Shown: piece by piece, positions 31 through 13,284 of the stretch
How positions within the stretch are numbered: position 1 is the first letter of the stretch
Layout: each line of letters opens with the position of its first letter
Assembly (NCBI GenBank): GCA_037128175.1
Contig: JBAXWY010000036.1
Span: 1-29,102, forward strand
Origin: Methanothrix sp.
GTDB taxonomy: Archaea; Halobacteriota; Methanosarcinia; Methanotrichales; Methanotrichaceae
DNA: 29,102 nucleotides
Direction: 5' to 3'
Position numbers and translations under genes: made by a program
Notes under the pieces: generated by a model
The model's database searches: none
Seen by the model: the letters and a program-made list of their open reading frames with translations, nothing else
What the model was told of the DNA's origin: nothing

Positions 31-1059
31 TTATTTAAGCCCAGCTGTACTAGTAAGATGATTGGATAGGACTAGAAGCGTCTTCTCATCCGCTGTTCTC
101 TGGCTCTCATCCCTATCCTTCATAAAAAGAGAAACCTCATCAAGCAGGAGAAGAATGCCGCTGTAGCCCTCGGCCATGATGACTCTGGCCATGTGCTCCA
201 GGATCTCTTCCAGATCAGCCTCGATACGCGGTCTAACCTTCAGGTATTCGTCATAAAATCTCCAGAGTTTGTTGCCGCAAGATTCCTTGTATGCGGGAGA
301 TTTATCATCCTGAATCTCGCGGATGAATTCGTCAATTTCCTCAAACTCATCTTCTTCAAAGAAGCGTGGATCTCGGAGAAACTTCTTGAGATCATTTCTG
401 TATCGATCTAAATCGTCACGGATGAATCGATCTGCCAGCAGTTCCACCGGATAAAGGGAAATATTTTTCCCTGATTCCCTCTGAAGTTGCTCCTTTGCCT
501 CATCCAGGATGTAATCCAACAGGCGTCTTCCGGAACCTACACCATCAGCGCTTCTGCCACCTGATCCTACCAGTGTTTTCACGACGACGAAGATGCCCTT
601 ATTGGGAGCAGAGCTCTTGGCCTCCAGGCCTTCCTCCCAGAACTGGTAGAGTGATTCTCGCTTTCCCCGACCGGCCTTTTGCTCTTTTTCTCGGACCAGT
701 TCCCAGGAATCCTTCGAGCCAAGAGCTAGCGAGGCCAGGAAACAGAGTAAGTGAGATTTGCCCGATCCGAACTCGGCCTGGATCCAGTAGCCTTGACCAA
801 TAGGATCGCCCACCCGGTCCGGTCGGTAGGGGGCGGCCATCTTTCGGAAGATGTCATTCAGGAAGGGGCGGACGGGATCGATCTGAAACTCCTGGATGGT
901 TTTAAGCTCCGGTTTTCTCAGGCGGAAGACATCTGGGTCGAGGTGGCCCCCGGCCCAGACATGCTGCTCAAGAGTGTAAACGGAGATAATTTTATCTGGA
1001 ATCTTGCATATCTTGTCCAGGCTCTCCCTGTAGGTGAAAATGTCCTGCGTGGCGTTCAT
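31..1059 (-). pseudogene. BREX-associated P-loop ATPase (BrxC/PglY/DUF6079-like), apparently C-terminally truncated
   Basis: Walker A 'AEFGSGKSHLL' and Walker B 'ILLLLDEVS'. The ATG at 1059 overlaps the methyltransferase stop (ATGA). The ORF ends about 35 aa after Walker B, whereas BrxC-type ATPases are typically >1000 aa. Confidence 0.7.
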
Positions 1060-3639
1060 GCTTGCCATCCCTCCAATTCTATCTGTGACTTCTTCGCCCT
1101 TCGAGGCTTCTTCTCCGGCTTAGGTGTTCTGGTCAGCATCTTGCCGCAGATCTGGTAGTCCTCGTCCACATTCACCTGCTCCTCTTCGGTCAGGCTCTCC
1201 AGGTTGAGGCCGCCTTTCTCGTAGAGCAGTTTGCCCTGCTCGTACATGCCCGAGCGCTTGCAGTGGCGGATCCAGTCGGCCAGGGTCGCGTCGCCCGGCC
1301 GCTCGCCCGCGGGCACGGGCACGCCCTGCTCCAGATAGGCCAGATAGCGCTTGATCCTGCGGCTGACGCCCTGTGCACGCCCCTCTTTCTTGATCTGCTC
1401 TTCTTCAGGGGAGGCAGGCAGGCGGTAGGTGCCCTCATCGGTTTTGTAGAAGTAATCGAGCAGCCACTCGACCAGAGGCCTGCGCGGCTTGTCCTTGGCC
1501 GGCACGGCGTAAACATAGTGCTCAAATACATCGGAGTAATGGACGCCTTCATCCTCTGGCTTCTTGGCTTTGGCAATGAACCCTTTGATGATATCAGCGG
1601 CAGCGTCTTCTTTGCCTGACTCGGCAGAATCGTCGATCTCCGTCTCCCGCAAGTACCAACGGGCAGCGCCGTTGGCCTCACCTTCGGTATGAAAAGGCTC
1701 AGCCACCTGGGAAAGAAGGTCCTCGAAATTGTGGGACTCCATCCGGCCCCGGCGCACCATGCGACTGACAACCTCGTCGAAGATGCGGTCCTTGGTAGAG
1801 CCTGGATTTGAAGTGAGGTAAATGGTTATGATGTTTTTGACCTTGTCCTGGAAGGTACCAAAGTCGTCAAGTTCCGTGATTAACGGGACGCCTAATTCAT
1901 CCGGCTTGGGCTTGCGGAAGTTGATGATTAAGTCGCGCTTATTGACTTTATCTGCATTAATCTGGTTGAAGGATTTCTGATCAGTATCGATAAAAAGTGC
2001 TAAGCTTGACTTTTCTACTACAAAACCTGCCTCTGCCATAATATCTTGGAGCATTGCCCATGTTCCTTCAGACGTATCGTGATAACAAAGGGATATTGCC
2101 CTGCCAGGCTTGAGGACGCGGAAGCATTCAGCCATGGCTTTTCGCATGTCATTTGCCCAATCAATCTCGGTCTTTCCGCGAATATCATTGATAACAATCT
2201 CCTCATTGTGCCAATTAGTATCGAAGCCAAGCCAAGATTCCCAGACAAAGTTCAACTCACCATATTGTACATTATCTGCGTATGGAGGATCTGTGAAAAT
2301 ATAATCAATTGAATTATTAGATAGACTATTAAAATTATAGGCGTTTTCTGTTGAGATGATGCAATATGCATTCTGTAGATTGGGAAGGATAGTCTGGTAT
2401 CCTTTTAAAATTCTCTTGAATTTATTCTCAAAATGTTTCCATTGCGGTTCCTCACAAGATATTTGCGGCAGGTAATATGTTCCTGTAAGCAGGTAAAATG
2501 GAAATGTGGCGTCTGGCATATACCGATTCATTTTTGAAAGGCCCAAAGAAATCCCCGTAAGCGTGAAACGCAAAACATCCGCGCAATCCTCTTGAAAAAT
2601 AGTAGTTTTTATTGAATTGAAAACTGCAGCCAGCGCCCACAGGTTGCGCTTGGTAAAAAGATCCGTCAGCTTGCTCGCATCTTCTTGACGGAAATCCTTC
2701 TTATAAAGCATTCTGTATGGAATCGCCTTTGCTAGATCTGCTTCAGGATACCAGTGCAGCATTTCTTTTTCTTCGAACTTCTTTTCTATCGTTTTGATTT
2801 TGCCCTGATCGTATTTCTCAAAAAATTCCCGTTTACTCAGATCGATATCATCGTGCCTGCGCTCAGCTCTTGCCGGTTTGCAGCCATTCTCGCAAGATGT
2901 AGCTAACCAAAACAGGAATTGGTCCGAAGTGCTCCCCCGTACTCTTGATCTGCTCCTGGATACCACGCATCTGGCAGTGAGGGCAGACCCTAACCTTCTT
3001 GGGCTTTCCCGACTTGGTTCTCCCTTCCACCACCGTGCAGTCGAAGAGTGCTACCTTCTCCATGCACCTGGGGCACTGGAAGACCTGCGAGTAAACCGTG
3101 CAGGCCGTGGTAGCCTTCCCCCCGCATCGTTCACACCTGGTTTCATACAGCCAGTCGATCTCCGGCTTGACCTTTGCCTTCAGCACCTCAAATGCCGCCC
3201 GCAGTTCATCCACATCCACCGGCGTGCAATAGTTCTTGGTGATGAAGGTAGCCGCAGGCGAGCGGTCGATGGCAATGGCCTTCCTGCCCTCCATGAGCGC
3301 TGCCAGGGCTGTTCCGCCCGAGCCGCAGAAGGGATCGAGCACCAGATCGCCCGGTTTCGTGTAGTGGCGGATGTACTCCCGGATGGCGTCGTGGGGCTTC
3401 TTGGACCAGTAGGTGTGCATGTTGTAGATGGCAGTGGCCTTGGTGGTCTCGATGGCGTGGTCGAAGGCCGGGACATCGTACTTATCAGTCTCGGGATCGT
3501 AAGGCCGCTCTGCCAGGTGCGCTTCCACGAAGGCCCGCAGGTTGGGATTGGGCTTGTCGCCGGAGTAGTAGCCCTCGGGCATCTGAGGAATGCGTTTCTT
3601 TTGTGCTGGCTTCTTGCGGTTGTCTGTCCAGGTGGTCAT
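1056..3639 (-). pseudogene. Large DNA adenine methyltransferase (PglX/PglXI-like, with Zn-ribbon), split by a +1 frameshift at about 2894
   Basis: The N-terminal ORF (ATG 3639, preceded by AGGGA) has SAM motif I 'DPFCGSG' and CxxC pairs (CERC, CPRC, CPHC). The C-terminal ORF has motif IV 'DPPY' (2280-2291) and 'RVLKPG'. Removing one base from TAC ATC T TGC GAG AAT joins them as ...VSYICENGCKP... Confidence 0.85.
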
Positions 3640-3779
3640 GGTGAAGTCCCTGGTTGCCTGATGAGATTCCAGACGATAAGACTTTTGGATGATTATTCTG
3701 CTCATCAAATAAGCGCGATCCGCGAAACGACTAAATATAAAGAGCTATCAATTCTTTTAAGGTAAGTGGAGCCGTTTTG

Positions 3780-4235
3780 ATGCTCGATGTTGACCTGTCA
3801 AGAGAAGAGGCTGATGCTATCTACGAAGCGCCCAAGTATGTAGACTCCAATGCGGTATCCTGGGAGATGACAGAAGGCAATTCCCAACGGATCAATATAT
3901 CTCTGACAACGGAAGACGGGACTCCTCTGCGAATCAGGGGCTGGTATAGCTGGGGTGGATCAATGAGATACGGATTCTCGCTCCTCTTCAAGAATACCAT
4001 CGTTATCAGACGCTGGGACAACAAATTGGGCCACAAAGATCCTGTAACCAGGAGCGAAACTACAGGACCTCACAAGCACTACCACGATCCGATTTATGCA
4101 GACTCACGATGTTATGAGACAAACGATGTTAGAACTGGCGATGTCAATGGCGCTCTATTTGACTTTATGAAGGAGTGCCATGTATCGATAGAAGGAATCG
4201 ATTATCAGTCATTGGGGGAATACCATGGAGTGTGA
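3780..4235 (+). CDS. Hypothetical His-motif protein (DUF6978/DUF6516-like)
   Basis: Intact ORF of about 151 aa with 'RRWDNKLGHKDP...GPHKHYH'. It overlaps the next gene by 11 nt. Family assignment is by motif recollection. Confidence 0.65.
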   Translation: MLDVDLSREEADAIYEAPKYVDSNAVSWEMTEGNSQRINISLTTEDGTPLRIRGWYSWGGSMRYGFSLLFKNTIVIRRWDNKLGHKDPVTRSETTGPHKHYHDPIYADSRCYETNDVRTGDVNGALFDFMKECHVSIEGIDYQSLGEYHGV

Positions 4236-4992
4236 AGAGATAGTCCGGCTTTATTTCGAAGGTATGAGAGATAGATTCTCTGTTGAAGCCACGGAAGATG
4301 GCTGCATCATTCGCACTCCCTACCAGGACCCGGATAATGATCCTATCAGCATTCACGTGAAAAAAGATGACAACTGCTTCCGGATATCAGACCAGACTCA
4401 GGCCATGGAGTTTCTATTCCTTCACGGCATAGATATCAGGCCAAAGTCCAAGCAGAGATGGCACTTCGACTCCATTCTAAGAAGGTTAGATGTCGATACG
4501 GCTGCAAATGAGCTGTACTTAGAAGTCCAGAAGGATGATCTAGCCGATGGCATAGCACGACTCATTGATGCCGTAAAATCAGCCGAGCATCTGGTTTACA
4601 CAGCAAAGACACGAAGCCAGCTGGATTTCGGAGAAGAAGTGGCCATCTGGCTAAGCAGCAACCAGATAATCTCGGATAGGAGAAGGGAGTTCATAGGAGC
4701 TTCAGGCAAGCAGGTACCTGTGGACTTTATAATTTCGCGCAAGAAAAAAGTGCCTGCCTTTTTGTATTCGCTCCATGCGGAGAGTCCAGGATACGCAAAC
4801 GGATTGGTAAATAAAACCATCGTAGCATGGATAGAACTGCGAGACGCCGGAATTCAATTCGATTCTGTCTGTCTTCTTGACGATACGGTAGAAGAAGATG
4901 TATGGAGAGAGCCTTATCCGAAACTGAAGAGACTCACAAGTACAGTAGCTTTCTGGGAGGAGAGGGATGAACTGCTGGAGGCGCTCGCTTGA
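4225..4992 (+). CDS. DUF1828/DUF1829-like protein (chaperone-like N-terminal domain plus restriction-endonuclease-like C-terminal domain)
   Basis: N-terminal 'IRTPYQDPDNDPISIHV...FRISD' matches the DUF1828 pattern. C-terminal 'IGASGKQVPVDFII...LLDD' resembles the GxSG..xDF motif of PD-(D/E)XK/Mrr-like folds. Confidence 0.75.
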   Translation: MECEEIVRLYFEGMRDRFSVEATEDGCIIRTPYQDPDNDPISIHVKKDDNCFRISDQTQAMEFLFLHGIDIRPKSKQRWHFDSILRRLDVDTAANELYLEVQKDDLADGIARLIDAVKSAEHLVYTAKTRSQLDFGEEVAIWLSSNQIISDRRREFIGASGKQVPVDFIISRKKKVPAFLYSLHAESPGYANGLVNKTIVAWIELRDAGIQFDSVCLLDDTVEEDVWREPYPKLKRLTSTVAFWEERDELLEALA

Positions 4993-5039
4993 TCGCCTTC
5001 AGATCAATTATGTGATTATCAATCAGTTCTGAGAACGCG

Positions 5040-5570
5040 TTATGCTCGCTCGTTCAGGCTCCATATGTGATCATCTGCAATGAGGTTGGTGGGTAGCAAG
5101 TAGCTGTCTTCGCCGGACTCGGAGAACATGATTATCTTGTCGCCAGCCCGCCTTCCAGGCAAGAGAAGTATCACTCTCTTCTGGTCCGTGGACAGAGTGC
5201 GGAGAGGATTCAGGTCCACGTCATAGGCGAAGAGAAGTTCCAGGTTAGAAAGCACTACGAGACCGTCTTCCATAAGCTTTTGGCGCAAAAACTTCTCAAA
5301 GGCCCGGTAGATATGAGCTCGGGTAGGCTCGGGCTTCCTGGCCTCGCTCTCAACGAGCTTTTTGAACTCGTCGTCCGGGATAGCACTGAGTATTCCTTTG
5401 TTTACCGAAGTTGGGGCTGGGAAGGGCTGGCCGTCAGAGGTCTTCGCCTCCTGGAGACGGAAAGCAAACCGCTCCAGGGCGCTGTAAGAACCGACTATGC
5501 CATACAGATGTCTCCCTACATCAACTGAAAGCTTGGCTATAATGGCCTCAATAATTTCCGTATCCCTTAT
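5040..5570 (-). CDS. BrxB/BrxF-like small protein (176 aa); canonical start codon missing (ATA)
   Basis: The frame stays open 94 codons upstream of the tracked TTG: IRDTEIIEAIIAKLSVDVGRHLYGIVGSY...SVNKGIL...LVVLSNLELLFAY...VILLLPG. A GGGAGGGA RBS-like sequence lies upstream of the ATA at 5570. The gene sits directly after the BrxA-like gene. Confidence 0.6.
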   Translation of the reverse strand: MRDTEIIEAIIAKLSVDVGRHLYGIVGSYSALERFAFRLQEAKTSDGQPFPAPTSVNKGILSAIPDDEFKKLVESEARKPEPTRAHIYRAFEKFLRQKLMEDGLVVLSNLELLFAYDVDLNPLRTLSTDQKRVILLLPGRRAGDKIIMFSESGEDSYLLPTNLIADDHIWSLNERA

Positions 5571-5657
5571 GCCTGCATCCCTCCCAACTGATCTTTAATT
5601 CTCTTCATGCATTGAAGTAATAAGTCCTTTAAGCGGTCTTCGGTCGGACAAAATATA

Positions 5658-6815
5658 TTATTGCATTATTCTTTCCGTCCCCAAGTATTCGATAAGTTCC
5701 TCTAGAGTGAACTTGGTAGTGAACTGCCTGAATCTGTCTATCTCTGAGACCTTTGCCAGGATGCCCTGATTCCTCAGTTCATATAGCCCGGCAAGCAGCT
5801 TATCTGGATTCCAGAGCATTGATTTTATAGCTTGATTCTGCTCCACATTTGATATCTCGTACATCCCAGGCTGTGGAAATTCGCTGTGGATCACAAAAGC
5901 CAGGGAGGCCGTCAATGGATCGCGATAGCCAAAACTGATTATCTTTCGGTCTGATCGAGCTAGGCCGCCAGCTACAAGAGAACTTACAATGGCCTGGGCG
6001 GACATATTGATAACATTGGCAGAGGGGTAACGTGCTGCCAGATATTCTCTTATCTTCAATCTGTCGAGCCGGCCATAACCGACGGCCGGCATCAACAGGT
6101 CATTAAAGATGGAGAGCATCAAAGGCTCTGCCTTGCAGAACCGGTAAAAGCAAGCATCTCGAAGCTCCTGGCGCCCCGAATAAATCTTGGCAAAAGATCT
6201 CAGCGCCCCATCCGCCTTGCCATCAGGAAACAGCCTGTTCACGATGTAGGGAACGTATCTATCTTTGGTGTTCTGGCCGCTGAAGGGCAAGTTCTCCTTG
6301 AGGAAAGCTCTTATTATGCCGATATCTTCCGTATCAGGCAGCCTGGGAAGAATCTCAATGGCTTCTTTTAGAACCGAATTGGTAAAAAGATCGCTCTTGC
6401 GCCGGGCAATATTTGCTTTGCGCAATTGCGTCTCTTTCTTCGATGGCAATATGGGCTCTTGATCTGACAATGGTTGAAACTTACTTAGGCTTTTTTGCGG
6501 CTTCTCAAAAACTTCTTTTTGTTGATCCTTGGCAGTTTCATTGGCGCGAAGATATCCTACGAGCTTTAGGAGCGTTGCGGTATATGATTTCACTCCCTTT
6601 ACCCGGCATAGAGCATCAAAATCAGAGGACAAAACGCCATCCAATCCTCCAAATTCTAAGATGAGCTTTTTAGCCAAAGGCTCAGGATTTCCTCTGCTCA
6701 GGGCATAGCTCAAAAGCAACTCAAGGAGTGCCTCATCCGTGAGTGCATTTGTCTCTCCTGAGAAAAAGTCATATCTCAGCTTCTGCCTTAGCCCTATCTC
6801 GCTTTTCTCAGCCAT
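5658..6815 (-). CDS. Fusion of a RadC/UPF0758 N-terminal HhH domain and a BrxA (DUF1819)-like domain
   Basis: Residues ~8-90 'LRQKLR...ALTDEALLELLLSYAL...LAKKLILEFGGLDGVL...LCRVKGV' match the RadC N-terminus, with no JAB HxHPSG motif. A low-complexity linker follows, then a ~240-aa helical domain resembling BrxA. Confidence 0.7.
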   Translation of the reverse strand: MAEKSEIGLRQKLRYDFFSGETNALTDEALLELLLSYALSRGNPEPLAKKLILEFGGLDGVLSSDFDALCRVKGVKSYTATLLKLVGYLRANETAKDQQKEVFEKPQKSLSKFQPLSDQEPILPSKKETQLRKANIARRKSDLFTNSVLKEAIEILPRLPDTEDIGIIRAFLKENLPFSGQNTKDRYVPYIVNRLFPDGKADGALRSFAKIYSGRQELRDACFYRFCKAEPLMLSIFNDLLMPAVGYGRLDRLKIREYLAARYPSANVINMSAQAIVSSLVAGGLARSDRKIISFGYRDPLTASLAFVIHSEFPQPGMYEISNVEQNQAIKSMLWNPDKLLAGLYELRNQGILAKVSEIDRFRQFTTKFTLEELIEYLGTERIMQ

Positions 6816-6954
6816 CCGTCCCTCATTAAGGCCATTAGAGATAAAGCCAAATTAAATTATTGGTCAAGACTGCATTCCAGAGAATCCTGTAACGAAGAGT
6901 AGTCATTGCTCTAATTTGGCCTTTTAGCGGATAGCCATTAGCCCATTTCGTGAC

Positions 6955-7638
6955 CTAAACCTTCCGCCCTCTCCGCACGCCCTTCCTCACAATCGTGTAA
7001 ATGGACTGCACGGTATTCCCGATAAAGAACCGCGGCGGCGTCCGCTTGCCCACCACCCGTGTCTGCCCGGCCCGGATGGCCGCCACTACCTCCTCTGCGT
7101 TTGCCGCCTCGATCTCCGTCACACCCAGCCCGACCGTGGCGGCAAAGTGCGAGTCGCTTCCCGCCACCATGGGCAGGTCTAGCTTCTTGGCGTTCCTCCG
7201 GGCCCTTGCGTTGGCTATGCCGAAGAGGTGCTTGGAGTTGTAGACCTCCACGGCATCGCAATCCGGTATGCGTCCGATGGCATGCCGGAAGGGATGGTAA
7301 GGATGGGGAACGATGGTGATGCCACCTTGCTCGCGGGCCATCTCGGACGTCTCTTCCGGGCTCCTGCCCCGGGACGGCAGCTCCTGCACGCCCAAAACCA
7401 ACAGGTGGCCCTCGGCGGTGGTGACCTCTCCTCCCGGTATGAGAATCAGGTCGAGCCTCTCTTCCCGGATGATCTTCATGGCTTTTAGAGAGCCCTGCAG
7501 GGTGTCGTGATCGGTTATGGACAGGCCGGCCAATCCGCGGCGCACGGCGGCGCGGAGAATGGTCCTGACCTCATCGCGGCCGTCGGAACAGTTGGAATGC
7601 ACATGCAGATCAAATCTCATCTTCGCCAGGGGCTCCAT
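6955..7638 (-). CDS. PHP-domain phosphoesterase
   Basis: Motifs 'DLHVHS', 'ITDHD', 'GGEVTT..GHLL', 'HPY', 'GSDSH'. Confidence 0.92.
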   Translation of the reverse strand: MEPLAKMRFDLHVHSNCSDGRDEVRTILRAAVRRGLAGLSITDHDTLQGSLKAMKIIREERLDLILIPGGEVTTAEGHLLVLGVQELPSRGRSPEETSEMAREQGGITIVPHPYHPFRHAIGRIPDCDAVEVYNSKHLFGIANARARRNAKKLDLPMVAGSDSHFAATVGLGVTEIEAANAEEVVAAIRAGQTRVVGKRTPPRFFIGNTVQSIYTIVRKGVRRGRKV

Positions 7639-7656
7639 TGTCTCAATTACATTCTT

Positions 7657-7752
7657 GTTAGTCGCTCTGTGCGTTCTCTGTGAGCTCTGTGTCTCTGTGG
7701 TGGAATCGTCGTTAGCCGCTGGTTATAGCCAAAACGGTTACAGACTACTACC
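7657..7752. repeat. CTCTGTG-heptamer repeat element, copy A (left arm plus spacer)
   Basis: 7657-7732 matches 16793-16868 at 68/76 positions without gaps and contains four CTCTGTG units. Confidence 0.85.
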
Positions 7753-9001
7753 CGCTAATTTCTGGCACAACCAGATAGCCGCTCAGTGCCGAGGCCGCCG
7801 CTGTGGCTGGGCTGGCTAGATAAACCAGTCCTCCTTTGCCCATCCGCCCTGGAAAATTGCGGTTGGAGGTGGAGACGCAGACTTCCCCCTCCGCCAAGAC
7901 GCCCATGTGCGCACCCAGGCAGGGCCCGCATCCCGGCGGACCGATCATCGCCCCCGCTTCCACCAGCGTCTGGATGATGCCGCTTTGCAATGCCGCCAGC
8001 AGAACCTCTCGAGAGGCAGGGATGACCAGAGTTCTCGCGATAACCCGCTTTCCCTTCAAAATGCGCGCGGCGACTGCCAGATCCTCCAGCCTTCCGTTGG
8101 TGCAGGTGCCTATGAAGACCTGATCAACCTCCAGGCCATCCAGCTCCGAGACAGGCCGAACATTGTCCACCCGGTAGGGTACGGCTACCTGCGGCTCTAG
8201 ATCAGTTATATCGTATTCGTATTCATAATCGTATGAACCGGGATCGGAGAACACCGGCTTGTAAGGCTGGCGCGCCCGGCCCGCCAGCCAGGCATCCGTC
8301 TTTTTGTCGGGCGGAACTATTGTGGCCTTGGCCCCCATCTCCACGCCCAAATTGCACAGCGTCATCCTGCCGGATATGCTCAGATCCTCAATGACCGGTC
8401 CGATGTACTCGACGGTCTTGTAGGTCGCCCCGTCAGCGCCCTGCTTGCCTATTATCATGAGCGCAATGTCCTTGGCGTATACGTTGGGCTTAAGCCTGCC
8501 GGACACCCGCACGGCTATGGTCTCAGGCACCTTAAACCACAAACGCCCCCTCGAATAGATCTCGGCCATGTCCGTGGCCCCCACGCCCGTGCCAAACGCC
8601 CCCAGGGCCCCATAGGTGCAGGAATGAGAATCGGCCCCTACCAACAGGAGTCCGGGCAAGGCAAATCCCTGCTCGGGAAAGACCTGGTGGCATACTCCTG
8701 AGCCGCAGTCAAAAAAGTTGCTGATATTCTGCTCTTTCGCCCAGGCCCGCACATCCTTTTGTAGCTCAGCCGCCGTCTCATTATTGGCAGGAACGATATG
8801 ATCGAAGGGTATGACAATCCTTTCCGGGTTCCATACCTTCTCCGAGCCCATTTCCTGGAAAGCCTTGATGGCCAGGACACTTGTTCCGTCATGAGACATG
8901 ACGTAATCCACGCCTGCCTCAAGAATCTCCCCCGGCTCCACCAAATTAGCGGAACCGGAGGCCCGTGAAAAGATTTTTTGGCTTATCGTTCCAGTCGCCA
9001 T
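7748..9001 (-). CDS. 3-isopropylmalate dehydratase/homoaconitase family large subunit (LeuC/HacA)
   Basis: Motifs 'DHIVP', 'GVCHQ', '[11 protein letters not shown]', 'IGTCTNGR', 'GCGPCLG', '[12 protein letters not shown]'. Confidence 0.95.
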
Positions 9002-9042: not shown

Positions 9043-10908
9043 TTAAGCTCGACGCTTGCATTCAATGTCCTCCGGGGAAGGCATAATGTAAGCGATATCC
9101 TCCGCAGGATGGCGGTAGAGCCTTGAACCCAACCGCTTTTGGTCCAGGATATGCCCGATCAGGCCGATGCTTCTGCCCAGGGCAAACAGCCCATTGAGAT
9201 AGCCCAGACGCACCACTTCATCGATCTCCGCCTTGCTGAAGGCTCCGCAGGAGGTCATCAGATCCAGGAAGAGAATTCCGATGCAGCCATCCACATTCAA
9301 GATCAGATTTCCCTTCTTGGCCGTGGTAAGCTCCTCAACCTGCAGGGCGTAATTGAGCAGCTCTGTGCTCGGGAAGTTCGCCCTGGCGTAGCTTATGAGT
9401 AATTGCACGCGCTTGTCCGGGTTCTTGACGCTCTTGATCTTGTGGCCGATGCCCGGGATGTTGATGCCCTTCCTCTTCATGTCGCTGACAAACTGCTCAG
9501 GCGTCAGATCCGCCTCTTTAGCGTGCTTGAATTCGCGAGCAGCATCGTCGATGGCACCACCGAAGCGCGGGCCGATGGTCAAGAGGCCGCTACATAGTGA
9601 TGATATGAGGTCTTTTCCGGCGCATGAAGCCACAATGGCGTTGTGGGCCCCGGATACGGCCGGGCCATGGTCGGCCACGATCTGCAAGACAAGCTCAATG
9701 AACCCGGCGGCATAGTCAGGCAGCTCCTTCTTAAACCAGAGCAGTCCGATGACCCCACCGATGCCCATCTTCTCATCCATAACAGCGGATAGCTTCTTTC
9801 CGGCATAGAGCACCTCTTCTCCGCTGTCGTCAGATATGGTGCAGATGAATGTGGTCGGCTTTCTGATGTCGCCGGAAGCCAACGCTTTGCTGTAGTCCGC
9901 CGGAATTCTTGGTGCTTCGGGCTCAATGAGCGGCAAAACTGAGCCCTGAGAGAGCAGCGTCTCGTATACCTGTCGCACACAATCGCCATAGCCATCGAAC
10001 GATGTGGGAACATAGGCACCTGCCTCAGAAAAGGCATCATTCTTGGCCTGAGCCGTCTCCTTGTGAGTATCGGCCTTAGCTCCGGCATGGCCAAATTGAA
10101 CGCTGGCGGGAAGCACGGGCGAGCAGGTTCCCGTCACCCATGCTACCAGCGGCTTTTTGATCTTGCCCTCTTTCAGGGCGGAAATGATCCTGTACTCGTC
10201 CTCGCCGCCCAGTTCTCCCAGGCAGGCAATCATCTTGATGGCGGGATTTTCCTCATAGCGCAGAATGTGGTCGAGCATTGTCGAGCCGGGATAGCGATCT
10301 CCGCCAATGGCCACGCCCTCGTAAATGCCGTCTGAGTTTCGGGAGATGATGTTGAAGGCCTCATTGAGCATGCCACCCGATTTGGAGACAAAACCAACAC
10401 ATCCCGGCCGGTAGAGCTTGGAGGCGATGATGTTCTCGATGGTCCCGGCGGTATTACCGATACGAAAAGCTCCCGCCGTCATGCCTCCTACCGTTGCCGG
10501 ACCGATGATGATCTTGCCCTGCTTTTTGGCTGTGGCGCTCATGATCCGCGACTGCCTCTCCGGCACCCCTTCGGCTATGACTGCCACAACGCGAATGCTT
10601 TTCTCTGCTATTGCCTCCATGGTGGTATCGAAGGCGGAACGGTGCGAAGCGAAGTTGACCATCACATCGGCTTTTGGATAGGCTTTGGCTGCCAGGGAGA
10701 TGCTCCTGTACATGGGTAGGATGATCTCTTTGCTTCCCCAAAAGGCCTTGTGAATGCCGGCTCGGCTGGGATTGATGATAGCAGAGATGCTCGGATCGGG
10801 GCGATTGCAGATGTAATCGAAGTCCAGCATGCGCTGGATGGCATTGGTCTGATAGCCGTAGACGAAGGCTTTCGTGTTTCTATCAAAGAGAACGTAATTC
10901 TGGCTCAT
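9043..10908 (-). CDS. aclA: ATP-citrate lyase alpha subunit
   Basis: CoA-binding and ligase domains ('IIGPATVGG', 'FGHAGA' phospho-His) followed by a citryl-CoA lyase domain ('ADHGPAVSGAHN', 'IPGIGHKIKS', 'ILNVDG'). Confidence 0.95.
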   Translation of the reverse strand: MSQNYVLFDRNTKAFVYGYQTNAIQRMLDFDYICNRPDPSISAIINPSRAGIHKAFWGSKEIILPMYRSISLAAKAYPKADVMVNFASHRSAFDTTMEAIAEKSIRVVAVIAEGVPERQSRIMSATAKKQGKIIIGPATVGGMTAGAFRIGNTAGTIENIIASKLYRPGCVGFVSKSGGMLNEAFNIISRNSDGIYEGVAIGGDRYPGSTMLDHILRYEENPAIKMIACLGELGGEDEYRIISALKEGKIKKPLVAWVTGTCSPVLPASVQFGHAGAKADTHKETAQAKNDAFSEAGAYVPTSFDGYGDCVRQVYETLLSQGSVLPLIEPEAPRIPADYSKALASGDIRKPTTFICTISDDSGEEVLYAGKKLSAVMDEKMGIGGVIGLLWFKKELPDYAAGFIELVLQIVADHGPAVSGAHNAIVASCAGKDLISSLCSGLLTIGPRFGGAIDDAAREFKHAKEADLTPEQFVSDMKRKGINIPGIGHKIKSVKNPDKRVQLLISYARANFPSTELLNYALQVEELTTAKKGNLILNVDGCIGILFLDLMTSCGAFSKAEIDEVVRLGYLNGLFALGRSIGLIGHILDQKRLGSRLYRHPAEDIAYIMPSPEDIECKRRA

Positions 10909-12173
10909 GTAGATGCACCATCCAATGCCAGGGGAACAATTCTGGTCATATGCGTCTCAGGTCCGTATACTTCAATGGGCACGCCTAGCCTTCCGCCAAC
11001 ACTCCGCATAAGCTTCAGGCCCTGCTCATAATTGGGGCCGCCTCTCCTCACATAAATCTTGACGCCCGCATCCTGTAGCATTTGCTGGTACTCCTCCAAG
11101 GCCATGACCACGCCCTTGAAGGTCTTGGCCACATCTGTGAAGTTGGCAATAGCGCCTCCTATGAGCAGCATCTTTCCGCGGGGGTCAATGCGACGCGTCA
11201 TCAGGTCCAAAATGGTCCTGGTGTAGTAGTAAGTCTCCTCGGTATTGGGATCGCCGCTGTATTCACCGTAATTGGCCATCTCCTTGGCAAAGCCCAGATC
11301 GCAGATGGTATCGGCGTAGATCACGCTCGCCCCGCCTCCGGCCACCATGGTCCAGACCCTTCCTTCCGGATTTAAAATGGTCAGCTTCAAAGAGGCTCCC
11401 GTCTTGGAATCAAGATCCTTGATGAACTGCTCTTCCTTGGACAGGCTTCTGCCGAAGGGCTCGGGGAAAGAGAGACCTGACCATCTTTTCCTCTGCCAGT
11501 ACTCCTCGGCATCATCAAGCTTGGCCACCATATCCAAAGGCACAATTGAGCCGTTATAGAAGGTAAAGGGATTGATCTCCAGATAGGAAAAGCCCGTTTC
11601 TGCATAAAAGCGCCACAAAGCCTTGATGAAATTCTCAACGGCGGTGCTCTTTTCCCCTAGATCCCCGGGCAAGCGGGACTTTATATCGACGCCATCTATT
11701 CCGGCCAGTACATCGACATGAAAACGAACTACTTTATCCCAATTCTCCTCCACAAAGACGCCGCCTTGCATGGAGAAGAAAATGTTGTCGCCATCGCTGT
11801 TCGAGCTGATGGCCACATAAAGCTCCTCTATGTGGGGTATGAAGGGTTCAATTAAGAAATGGGATAGCCTGCCGGTTATGTCTCCAACTGCGACCAATGC
11901 ACCCATGTTCTCCTGAAGGAATTCCTTCGCCCGATCCCAATCTGCATCCAGAAGAACCAGCCCGTGCTTGCCCCTCTTTCCAAAGAGCTGATCCGGCTTG
12001 ACGACTAGCCTTGCCGTCTTCAGCCAGGGATGAGTTGATGCCAACTCCTCCAGATCGGTCTCTGGTCCTACAAGGGCGAGTTCGCCCTTATAGGAGAATT
12101 CATTGAGGTACTGGGGAAGGAATCCGGCCAGCAAACGCTTTGCATCGTACTCCCTAATGCCTCTTTGTGCCAT
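10905..12173 (-). CDS. aclB: ATP-citrate lyase beta subunit
   Basis: Likely start MAQRGIREYDAK at 12173. ATP-grasp motifs 'VKPDQLFGKRGK', 'YLEINP', 'MVAGGGASV', 'NYGEYSG', 'RRGGPNY'. Overlaps aclA by 4 nt. Confidence 0.95.
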   Translation of the reverse strand: MAQRGIREYDAKRLLAGFLPQYLNEFSYKGELALVGPETDLEELASTHPWLKTARLVVKPDQLFGKRGKHGLVLLDADWDRAKEFLQENMGALVAVGDITGRLSHFLIEPFIPHIEELYVAISSNSDGDNIFFSMQGGVFVEENWDKVVRFHVDVLAGIDGVDIKSRLPGDLGEKSTAVENFIKALWRFYAETGFSYLEINPFTFYNGSIVPLDMVAKLDDAEEYWQRKRWSGLSFPEPFGRSLSKEEQFIKDLDSKTGASLKLTILNPEGRVWTMVAGGGASVIYADTICDLGFAKEMANYGEYSGDPNTEETYYYTRTILDLMTRRIDPRGKMLLIGGAIANFTDVAKTFKGVVMALEEYQQMLQDAGVKIYVRRGGPNYEQGLKLMRSVGGRLGVPIEVYGPETHMTRIVPLALDGAST

Positions 12174-12285
12174 GTTCAAAACCACCTTCGCCGCCTTAAT
12201 GATTTTCTTATTTACAAACCTTTCTAAAGGAAAAAGCCTAAAATGGCTCTTGAATGGCGAAATACTCCAGGGGGATCGGCTTACT

Positions 12286-13284
12286 ATGAAGTGTCCTGTT
12301 TGCAAAAAAGGCTGCATTCAGCCTGCAATAGAGGTTCTGGCAGAGATCGAGCAAAGGTACCCGGCCTGCCCGGCATGCGCGCCGGAGCCCAATTTAGACA
12401 AAACAGCAAGGTCAAAGCTTCTTCCGGAAAGGGTGGAAAGGTGCAGATCCTGCGGCAAAGCAACGCTTGACGGCGTAATGCTCGATGCCCTGCGCTTGCT
12501 GCAAGGCTACGGTCTGCGCGATGAAGATGAGACGTTGCGCTCCGTGGGCTCGCCGCTCATTGAGGTCGGCTATCCCCTGGCCTACTCGCCCCGGCTTGGG
12601 CCCAGGAGCCTGATACTTTCCGGTGACAGGTACAACAAAGAGGCCGCGGAGGCGATGCTAGAGCAAATTCCGGAGATCAAGGGAGTGATTCTGAGCAGGG
12701 GCGTTGCCGGAGTGATCGCCAGAGGGAAAAAGCCCCAGGAGAATTTGCTAATGGCCGGCTGCGACATGCGCGCCGACATCTCTCAAAGCCTCTTTGGGGA
12801 AACTGTGATATACAAAAGCCAGTCGCGAATACACATCGAATTTTCCCGGCAGAGCGCCCCCAAGATGAGAATTTTAGAGCAGCTATATTTGCAAGGAAAG
12901 CTTCGCGATGTGGTGGATGGGCTCGCGGGTCCGGGAACACTGGGGCTGATGTGCGTTTTAGCCGGGGCCAAGCGCGTGGTGCTCAATGATGCCTGGCTTG
13001 CCAGCGTGCAAAACGTGCTGCTCAATCTGGAAGCTAATAGAAGCTTGCTTGGAATCGATGAGATAGAGTATCCGGAAACCTCCAGGAGCACCGTGGGAAA
13101 GCAGCCGGTGCTCGTCGGTCGCGCCCATGGGGCCTGTGAGATCGAAGTCTATCACGGCGACCTTTTGAGGCTCTTTTCCAGAGCGCGGCCCGCCGACATT
13201 TGTCTGATCGATCACTTTCCCGGTGCTAATACAGCGGAGCTGGAGAGGGCCTGCCGGTGCTGTAAAGAGATAGTAATCGTGTAA
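12286..13284 (+). CDS. Conserved hypothetical protein with N-terminal Cys/Zn-finger and SAM-dependent methyltransferase-like C-terminus
   Basis: CPVC, CPAC and CRSC motifs, plus 'VVDGLAGPGTLGL...VVLND' Rossmann motif I. The ATG at 12286 follows GGGGGA. Confidence 0.7.
   Translation: MKCPVCKKGCIQPAIEVLAEIEQRYPACPACAPEPNLDKTARSKLLPERVERCRSCGKATLDGVMLDALRLLQGYGLRDEDETLRSVGSPLIEVGYPLAYSPRLGPRSLILSGDRYNKEAAEAMLEQIPEIKGVILSRGVAGVIARGKKPQENLLMAGCDMRADISQSLFGETVIYKSQSRIHIEFSRQSAPKMRILEQLYLQGKLRDVVDGLAGPGTLGLMCVLAGAKRVVLNDAWLASVQNVLLNLEANRSLLGIDEIEYPETSRSTVGKQPVLVGRAHGACEIEVYHGDLLRLFSRARPADICLIDHFPGANTAELERACRCCKEIVIV

Follow-up and report, generated by a model that had tools for sequence, protein, structure and literature searches.

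A gene pair antisense to a BREX-like operon of Methanothrix is a diverged copy of the candidate defence system PDC-M24 and probably a toxin–antitoxin module

On a 29,102-nucleotide stretch of DNA from Methanothrix sp. (contig JBAXWY010000036.1, hereafter the window, which is the entire contig C36 of a 2.96-Mb genome in 98 contigs), we studied a cassette of two genes that lies antisense to the genes of a bacteriophage exclusion (BREX)-like locus. Gene 1 (3780..4235, + strand) encodes 151 amino acids, or 152 from an alternative TTG start at 3777, and gene 2 (4225..4992, + strand) encodes 255. On sequence comparison the cassette is a diverged archaeal copy of PDC-M24, a catalogued candidate defence system, and it is probably a toxin–antitoxin module in which gene 1 is the toxin and gene 2 its neutralising partner. 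This reading draws on the PDC-M24 match, the homology of gene 1 to TumE toxins, the strict pairing of the two genes, an asymmetry in their loss, the kind of modules that sister genomes carry at this site, the precedent of the HipAD system and a hint from RNA libraries. An earlier note on this DNA had proposed an uncharacterised two-component anti-virus or toxin–antitoxin module. The core of that idea fits the co-occurrence, neighbourhoods and toxin homology described below, but the module is not an unnamed one, and the name it bears, PDC-M24, marks a prediction. PDC-M24 is already known as a catalogued candidate and the cassette is not a new kind of system; what is new here is the link of gene 1 to TumE, the domain reading of gene 2, the loss asymmetry and the exchange of toxin–antitoxin-type cargo in a BREX slot.

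Neither frame contains an internal stop, the neighbouring genes on both sides read on the - strand, and the end of gene 1 overlaps the start of gene 2 by 11 nucleotides (ATGGAGTGTGA, 4225..4235, + strand). These observations confirm the two intact, overlapping antisense open reading frames (ORFs) described before, and the overlap suggests that translation of the two genes is coupled. Each has homologues, which range from archaea to Firmicutes prophages, and neither is therefore a mere chance ORF. When the proteins were compared with the PADLOC models, gene 2 matched two PDC-M24B models over nearly full length (PDLC04540 and PDLC04539, both E 1.1e-30, about 105 bits), and gene 1 matched PDC-M24A weakly (PDLC04533, E 2.1e-5, 22.5 bits; PDLC04538, E 1.2e-4). 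In distant archaeal pairs PDC-M24B was matched in six of six and PDC-M24A in five of six at E <= 1e-5, with best scores of 6e-108 and 1.4e-57, respectively. No Brx or Pgl model of PADLOC matched the cassette proteins; only flanking genes did.

According to the accessible text of the preprint that introduced them, the PDC systems are 145 "guilt-by-embedding" phage defence candidates and are predictions only (Payne et al. 2024, 10.1101/2024.01.29.577857). The cassette resembles PDC-M24 in that gene 2 matches the B models and the two genes lie on one strand, embedded in a BREX-like locus in the way the candidates were defined in that text; it differs in the weak match of gene 1 to the A models, its methanogenic archaeal host and its orientation antisense to the host system. 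In the literature that could be searched no paper uses the term 'PDC-M24', and nothing further was found in the literature on the function of DUF1828, DUF1829 or DUF6978. The main text of a recent survey of archaeal immunity, as far as it could be consulted, is silent on the cassette (PMC12988326).

We found that gene 1 aligned with the full profile of Pfam DUF6978 (PF22398, positions 1-133) at 29.4 bits, where the gathering cut-off is 29.6, and with Pfam TumE (PF20126 / DUF6516) at 20.5 bits (E 5e-4), where the cut-off of 23.4 was not reached. Eleven gene 1 homologues pass the DUF6978 cut-off (37.8-156.9 bits), and the homologue in G386 (G and L numbers are our handles for genomes and loci) passes that of TumE (24.4 versus 23.4). 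When an alignment of 20 gene 1 homologues was compared by hhalign with 26 canonical TumE proteins, all drawn from genomes of the class to which the window's genome belongs, the two families aligned over 114 columns (Prob 96.7%, E 4.1e-10), in a register that placed RRWDN..GH over FRYDNAPHH of TumE and GPHKH over FPHHKH. By these profile comparisons gene 1 is a remote relative in the TumE superfamily, probably belonging to the sister family DUF6978 and lying outside the Pfam TumE family proper. Nothing was found in NCBIfam for gene 1 or gene 2.

The cluster RxD..xH...GPHKH, noticed earlier in gene 1, comprises R77 R78 W79 D80, H85 and G96 P97 H98 K99 H100, and 20 close homologues keep it with little or no variation. 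H85, H98 and H100 are also kept in 13-14 of 14 deeply divergent homologues (19-49% identical to gene 1), across which the conserved positions are K19, G33, H85, H98, H100 and F129. The His cluster is thus the conserved core of the family, and it is a better candidate for catalysis than the nuclease-like fold of gene 2. The AlphaFold model of gene 1 (predicted local distance difference test score, pLDDT, 88.6) has a helix at residues 8-16, seven to eight strands and a helix at residues 122-132. This predicted secondary structure fits the fold as the TumE report describes it in its accessible part, with two helices packed against an antiparallel sheet of seven strands and no confident match in the Protein Data Bank (PDB) (PMC10584680). 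Against solved structures gene 1 gave a best Foldseek E of 0.047 in the PDB, a best VIA-align Z of 5.2 and no hit with its sequence profile, which agrees with the TumE report and says nothing on function. In a viral structure library, the sole match of the model was an uncharacterised 154-amino-acid siphovirus protein (E 9e-5, template modelling score 0.57).

As described in the accessible part of the TumE report, six gammaproteobacterial TumE proteins abolished growth of E. coli and were neutralised by neighbouring genes, one of them lowered 35S-methionine incorporation in E. coli, and RNase activity was proposed, not proven (Durairaj et al. 2023, PMC10584680). Gene 1 shares with TumE the motifs R-[YW]-D-N..H and P-H-x-H and the profile homology given above, its modelled secondary structure fits the fold description, and like TumE it sits in a bicistronic arrangement with an unrelated partner. 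Unlike TumE, it probably belongs to a sister family under the Pfam TumE cut-off, and its partner is a downstream, two-domain protein of 255 amino acids, whereas TumA, as characterised in the available text, is small, upstream and RelB-like or of unknown type. If the relation is true, Pfam DUF6978 would be tied to a validated toxin superfamily. TumE itself is frequent in this class, where 40 of 121 genomes contain it, and the window's own genome has two copies (G000:C49:19528-19752, locus L054, and G000:C22:15148-15378); the L054 protein has 140 amino acids, and a 96-amino-acid ORF lies immediately upstream of its gene, in the usual position of TumA.

An exhaustive profile search of 1.84 billion representatives returned 2,067 clusters of the gene 1 family at 50% identity, 926 of them with E <= 1e-10. 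Most of the 150 clusters listed are 140-160 amino acids long. Nine longer proteins were scanned and mostly have no additional Pfam domain; their N-terminal extensions may be miscalled start codons. One protein of 243 amino acids, P0116, combines DUF6978 (residues 4-120) with the first part of DUF1828 (residues 178-221), and may be either a true gene fusion or an artefact of read-through or gene calling.

The pairing of the two genes was examined in a phylum sample of 401 genomes. Hits came from 7 genomes with the gene 1 profile, from 16 with the gene 2 profile and from 12 with Pfam DUF6978, and every locus was inspected with local hidden Markov models (HMMs) and Pfam. In 14 of 14 genomes, the window's included, a gene of the gene 1 family was followed directly and on the same strand by a gene 2 homologue; in two of them the gene 2 homologue was detected only by local HMM. 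None of the 14 had gene 1 on its own. Across 14 pairs whose spacing was examined, it ranged from -29 to +12 nucleotides. The co-occurrence elsewhere that the earlier note had asked about is present in these genomes. Gene 2 occurred without gene 1 in 4 of the 18 genomes with a gene 2 homologue: in G002 the upstream position holds a fragment of a Mutator transposase and in G307 a 600-nucleotide gap, G152 has a 60-amino-acid ORF of negligible similarity, and G198 has a DUF1828-only protein.

Outside archaea, a tblastn search with the G358 homologue of gene 2 returned 12 plasmid and 18 phage records. The pair was complete in two of the three plasmid records examined, those of Acetobacter and S. 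epidermidis, in which a full gene 1 frame lies directly upstream of gene 2 (E 3e-40 and 6e-15); in the third, from Lactobacillus, gene 2 is intact and gene 1 is only a C-terminal remnant of 62 amino acids. The three records examined from phages or satellites (prophage Lj965, Staphylococcus phage 37 and satellite Javan357) all carry the pair in the lysogeny module, beside the integrase. In the Acetobacter and S. epidermidis records the gene 1 homologue is unannotated, or annotated only as short fragments or a 79-amino-acid coding sequence; the frames concerned (155-159 amino acids) lie at 4582-5058 of L085 (Acetobacter) and 3504-3968 of L083 (S. epidermidis).

The position in lysogeny modules might suggest a regulatory or lysogeny-control pair, of the repressor/anti-repressor type or conferring superinfection immunity, with no toxin at all. 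In Lj965, Staphylococcus phage 37 and Javan357 the pair does stand between the repressor region and the integrase, and the N-terminal fold of gene 2 matches PA14_16140, a transcription-associated, YbjN-like regulator (Z 10.7). Against this, Pfam gave no helix-turn-helix DNA-binding domain in either cassette protein, gene 1 is homologous to TumE toxins, and the pair also occurs in non-viral chromosomal contexts. We consider this explanation very unlikely.

Gene 2 was read domain by domain. Pfam DUF1828 matched residues 31-116 (E 3.1e-14, 53.5 bits, cut-off 22), and Pfam DUF1829 gave no hit at E <= 1. The G358 homologue, which aligns with the gene 2 family over profile positions 3-237, contains both domains (DUF1828 1.5e-28, DUF1829 5e-34), and the nearest Atlas clusters of gene 2 are DUF1828+DUF1829 proteins. 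The model of gene 2 is moderate (pLDDT 70.9, lowest around residues 184-190); its Foldseek matches, to AF1548, NucS and chaperones of type III secretion systems (T3SS), are weak, and its sequence profile had no hits in the PDB. With VIA-align, residues 1-128 resembled T3SS chaperones and YbjN-like proteins (Z for PA14_16140 10.7, Spa15 9.5 and SycN 9.4), and residues 132-255 resembled PD-(D/E)xK folds (XisH 9.5, Upx 9.3, AF1548 9.2, Can2 8.8, NucS 8.5, PspGI 8.4 and Card1 8.4). These matches, with Z up to 10.7 in the first part and 8.4-9.5 in the second, and the DUF1828 hit (E 3e-14) support the earlier description of a chaperone-like N-terminal and a restriction-endonuclease-like C-terminal domain.

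The C-terminal fold raises the possibility of reversed roles, in which gene 2 would be the effector, a PD-(D/E)xK nuclease that cuts nucleic acid of the invader or the host, and gene 1 would serve it as sensor, activator or inhibitor. The matches include effector nucleases of defence systems (Can2, Card1 and, with Z 6.7, NucC) and restriction enzymes at Z 7-8.4. Among 17 gene 2 homologues the conserved residues are P32, D39, D56, L64, A116, L123, F135, V139, D167 and D220; D167 and D220 are kept in 16 of the 17, and close homologues have an acidic residue at position 137. However, no (D/E)xK on the third strand is conserved in the 17 homologues, and E186, which is invariant in close relatives, is not kept more widely, so that the nuclease fold named in the earlier note is present but a reading of the domain as a nuclease is not supported. 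The model on which the fold comparison relies is also at its poorest around residues 184-190, and the homologue of a validated toxin is gene 1, not gene 2. We regard reversed roles as improbable; the C-terminal domain appears to be a nuclease fold with no demonstrable catalytic site.

Natural deletion variants in Methanothrix provided a further argument. Related loci came from narrow, pattern-based scans, in which 2 of 99 genome-contig and 8 of 290 metagenome-contig stretches were confirmed, and they fall into four states. Three loci have both genes intact: L001 (98%), L004 (100%, which may be the same assembly) and L007, a distant one (48%). A precise deletion of gene 1 in L005 and L011 (window 3783-4230 is missing) leaves its ATG fused in frame to codon 3 of gene 2, which in L005 is full length and 97.6% identical. 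L008, L009 and L010 have lost both gene 1 and the DUF1828 domain (about 3789-4620). Here an in-frame junction links the first three codons of gene 1 with gene 2 near residue 135, so that only the nuclease-fold domain follows the conserved promoter and TGGAG; this frame is uninterrupted in L008 and L009 and contains a single stop in L010. In L002 only residues 1-134 of gene 2 are kept. The third state also speaks against the reversed roles considered above, since an unregulated toxic nuclease should forbid a C-terminal domain expressed alone from the start of gene 1, as in the two open frames.

When 59 genomes of the genus were searched at the DNA level, 15 matched part of the query, two (the window's genome and G463) had the full cassette and none had gene 1 alone. 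Loss of gene 1 with retention of gene 2 therefore occurs, and no case of the opposite was seen, as would be expected were gene 1 the harmful partner. For cases of gene 1 alone, the searches of the phylum and the genus are the only unbiased ones. No deletion joint was present in contigs of four sequencing runs, in which the uncovered parts are not evidence of absence. Around its gene 2 remnant (6501-7794 and 8463-8996), L002 carries a SocA/Panacea-like gene of 177 amino acids (E 9e-4) and a pair of 171 and 273 amino acids with no Pfam hit; judged by eye, the 171-amino-acid protein resembles the Panacea-like one and the 273-amino-acid protein ends in a nuclease-like D..E.K stretch.

A promoter-like block of 25 nucleotides (ATCCnnGAAACnnCTAAATAYAAAG, 3718..3742, + strand) contains the TATA-like element TAAATATAA at 3732-3740 that had been pointed out before. 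This element is the sole copy in the window, where 0.06 were expected and 5 of 100 shuffles had at least one, and the block is kept in five of five related loci that are otherwise about 73-80% identical. The purine-rich GAAAC stretch before the element looks, by eye, like a transcription factor B recognition element. A Shine–Dalgarno-like TGGAG (3767..3771, + strand) lies 8 nucleotides upstream of the gene 1 ATG and is conserved in five of five loci, including the deletion variants, where it precedes the remainder of gene 2.

Contigs from three RNA libraries of different studies covered parts of both genes: 3862-4332 and 4361-4897 in X7; 3788-3956, 4117-4462, 4445-4753 and 4751-4948 in X17; and 3785-4066, 4464-4621 and 4876-5093 in X18. 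The junction of the two genes is bridged by contigs of X7 and X17. Contigs of two studies start at 3785-3788, and 3630-3785 is covered by none of the RNA-library contigs and is covered by a DNA run, a weak hint that transcription starts shortly after the TATA-like element. Strand, level and ends are not readable from these contigs, and carry-over of DNA is possible. We regard the two-gene module as probably expressed.

Genomes of the genus keep the 5' end of the BREX methyltransferase gene PglXI and a BrxF-like gene with differing inserts between them. At this site we found Fic/DOC in L098 (G442) and L099 (G424); HD with SocA/Panacea, Macro with DarT, and Fic in L100 (G455); HD with Panacea, and a small ORF with PIN, in L102 (G413); and DarT with a Macro-domain gene beside the gene 2 remnant in L009 and L010, where PglXI is intact (frames of 946 and 873 amino acids) and the BrxF-like gene encodes 174. 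The DarTG, Fic and Panacea-linked modules resemble the cassette in occupying the same site as toxin–antitoxin-type cargo and differ in that their proteins are unrelated to it. The site between PglXI and the BrxF-like gene is a hotspot at which toxin–antitoxin-type embedded modules are swapped in an archaeal BREX-like locus. In L101 (G406) it holds an unrelated pair of 248 and 156 amino acids (905-2122, - strand) with no Pfam hit; this pair was considered as a diverged copy of the cassette and rejected, as comparison gave no hits, and it may be another embedded module.

In the wider sample the pair lies between the C-terminus of a type IIG enzyme and BrxL in G287, beside a Schlafen/AlbA_2 gene and a type IIG-like enzyme of 1,299 amino acids in G386, beside a type IIG enzyme and a transposase in G056, on a contig with an archaeal phage integrase in G380, and among housekeeping genes in G110 and G358. 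Restriction–modification (RM) or BREX genes stand within two genes of the pair in four of seven contexts, the window included, a neighbourhood of the kind that the earlier note had proposed checking for homologous pairs. A module of this kind could serve merely for addiction, stabilising mobile elements or genomic islands with no anti-virus role. The pair is found on plasmids (12 records), in prophage lysogeny modules by integrases and, in archaea, by a transposase or integrase; two of the seven contexts have no defence neighbours; and the cassette persists while the surrounding BREX genes are damaged. On the other side stand the RM and BREX neighbours in four of the seven contexts, the independent selection of PDC-M24 by guilt-by-embedding, so far as the source describes it, and the easy natural loss of the cassette, which argues against strong addiction. 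The slot-mates point the same way: they include DarTG and Fic, and some such families have been reported as anti-phage systems. A purely addictive role thus seems rather unlikely to us, and the preferred reading, a toxin–antitoxin module with gene 1 as toxin, leaves room for both defence and stabilisation.

The nearest functional analogue for gene 2 is DS-6/HipAD. In the accessible text of the DefensePredictor study (Science 2026, PMC13092281) this system pairs a HipA-like kinase toxin that targets translation with a DUF3037+DUF1829 partner, proposed to be a DNA-binding antitoxin. AlphaFold3 gave interface predicted template modelling (ipTM) scores of 0.76-0.79 for toxin and partner and 0.67 for partner and DNA, and phage defence required kinase activity (PMC13092281). 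As far as this source goes, the two systems are alike in having two genes, a translation toxin (predicted for the cassette) and a partner with a DUF1829 domain (in the cassette, a DUF1829-like fold) in a toxin–antitoxin or abortive-infection model. They differ in that HipAD has a HipA-like kinase toxin, a DUF3037 N-terminal domain and demonstrated phage protection, whereas the cassette has a TumE-like toxin candidate and DUF1828 and is known from sequence. The comparison suggests that, if the reading is true, DUF1829 is a reusable partner domain for differing translation toxins.

We propose the following mechanism. Gene 1 would arrest growth by blocking translation, by analogy with the validated TumE toxins, and is probably a His-dependent RNase with the H85/H98/H100 triad as its likely active site. 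Gene 2 would be co-translated from the same short-leader transcript and neutralise gene 1, probably binding the toxin through its T3SS-chaperone-like DUF1828 domain. For the DUF1829-like fold, a role in nucleic-acid binding, autoregulation or sensing is more probable than one as a nuclease. The module could then free the toxin when a virus attacks (abortive infection), or it could do no more than stabilise its island, both being possible because it rides on mobile elements and also sits in defence loci. To our knowledge, few archaeal defences other than CRISPR and RM have been tested so far. If true, the mechanism would give one of the 145 PADLOC candidates a concrete, testable form, a His-triad TumE-type toxin with a two-domain neutraliser, and would present a Methanothrix BREX slot that exchanges toxin–antitoxin-type cargo and in which deletion variants already indicate which gene can go alone.

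Several observations weigh against this interpretation. Gene 1 falls just below both Pfam cut-offs, for DUF6978 and for TumE, and its PDC-M24A match is weak at 22.5 bits. The toxin candidate comes first with a large 255-amino-acid partner downstream, and most TumE–TumA clusters have a small upstream partner. The loss asymmetry consists of few, partly related events, and the Methanothrix variant loci were found with a gene 2 query, so that gene 1 alone would be undetectable there. Two of the seven contexts (G110 and G358) are plain housekeeping neighbourhoods. RNA-library contigs cannot prove transcription because such libraries may contain DNA. The literature search yielded no data on toxicity, binding or defence, either for this pair or for other members of PDC-M24. 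Finally, the antisense orientation departs from the rule for embedded genes, 96.7% of which share the orientation of the host system according to the accessible text (Payne et al. 2024, 10.1101/2024.01.29.577857). With these points counted, we still hold the toxin–antitoxin reading, with gene 2 as the neutralising partner, to be the probable one.

A bolder version, which we put forward tentatively and think more likely wrong than right, is that PDC-M24 is a form of sensor-coupled abortive infection common to archaea, bacteria and prophages. The chaperone-like DUF1828 domain would keep a TumE-type translation toxin inactive, and a catalytically dead DUF1829 fold would detect invading nucleic acid or a viral protein and release the toxin. 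If that were true, the DUF1829 sensor would be a portable trigger domain used with unrelated toxins, TumE-like here and HipA-like in HipAD, and the natural variants of Methanothrix, with both genes, with gene 2 alone or with the sensor domain alone, would be a ready-made genetic dissection. In either version gene 1 would be the putative toxin, a DUF6978 or PDC-M24A-type protein of the TumE superfamily, and gene 2, a PDC-M24B-type protein with DUF1828 and a DUF1829-like fold, the putative antitoxin or sensor.

The flanking genes provide context for the cassette. Upstream of gene 1, a PglXI-type BREX methyltransferase occupies two ORFs (1056..3708, - strand), identified by PADLOC (2863..3708, E 2e-47; 1056..2966, E 1.5e-54) and tblastn. 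With an intact relative as query, the frame switches at 2896/2894; the break at 2890-2900 reads 'atcttgc', where relatives encode an unbroken VSYICENGCKPAR (..YI|CEN..). A single additional T, producing a +1 frameshift near 2894-2896, would fit this sequence and may reflect either a genuine inactivation of BREX or a mistake in the assembly. The true start of PglXI is probably near 3639, divergent from gene 1. Downstream of gene 2 lies a BrxF-like gene (5040..5594, - strand), for which the PADLOC match is weak (BrxF, E 1.2e-4, on an 82-amino-acid ORF). Its frame is 58.8% identical over 177 amino acids, in a single frame by tblastn, to an intact relative of 174 amino acids. It has 184 open codons with no ATG, GTG or TTG before about codon 103; the L009 relative begins with M. 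This indicates a lost start codon or a non-canonical start, not a truncation. The lesions previously claimed for the flanking genes are accordingly upheld for PglXI, as a frameshift, and not for the BrxF-like gene as a truncation. The intact BrxF-like relative matched no PADLOC or Pfam family, and the BrxF and BrxC assignments are both weak (E 1e-4, and about 1e-3 to 1e-5).

Further along the - strand, a gene of 385 amino acids (5658-6815) adjoins the BrxF-like gene and has only a weak match to the N-terminus of UPF0758/RadC (E 0.004). G442 has DNA 95% identical to that across the end of this gene, which hence travels with the locus. The BREX-like operon of the window heads toward the contig start; PglZ-like frames elsewhere in the genome (G000:C5:4985-5170 and G000:C9:8549-8695; 967 and 806 amino acids) were noted, and one of them might be its continuation. 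An aconitase-family gene (7748-9001) adjoins an ATP-citrate-lyase-type gene pair (9043-12317, - strand), one gene with citrate-binding and ATP-grasp parts and the other with CoA-ligase and citrate-synthase C-terminal parts; these form a metabolic context unrelated to the cassette. The gene content of the window is archaeal, with Pus10 carrying an archaeal THUMP domain, ThiI and the ATP-citrate-lyase-type genes.

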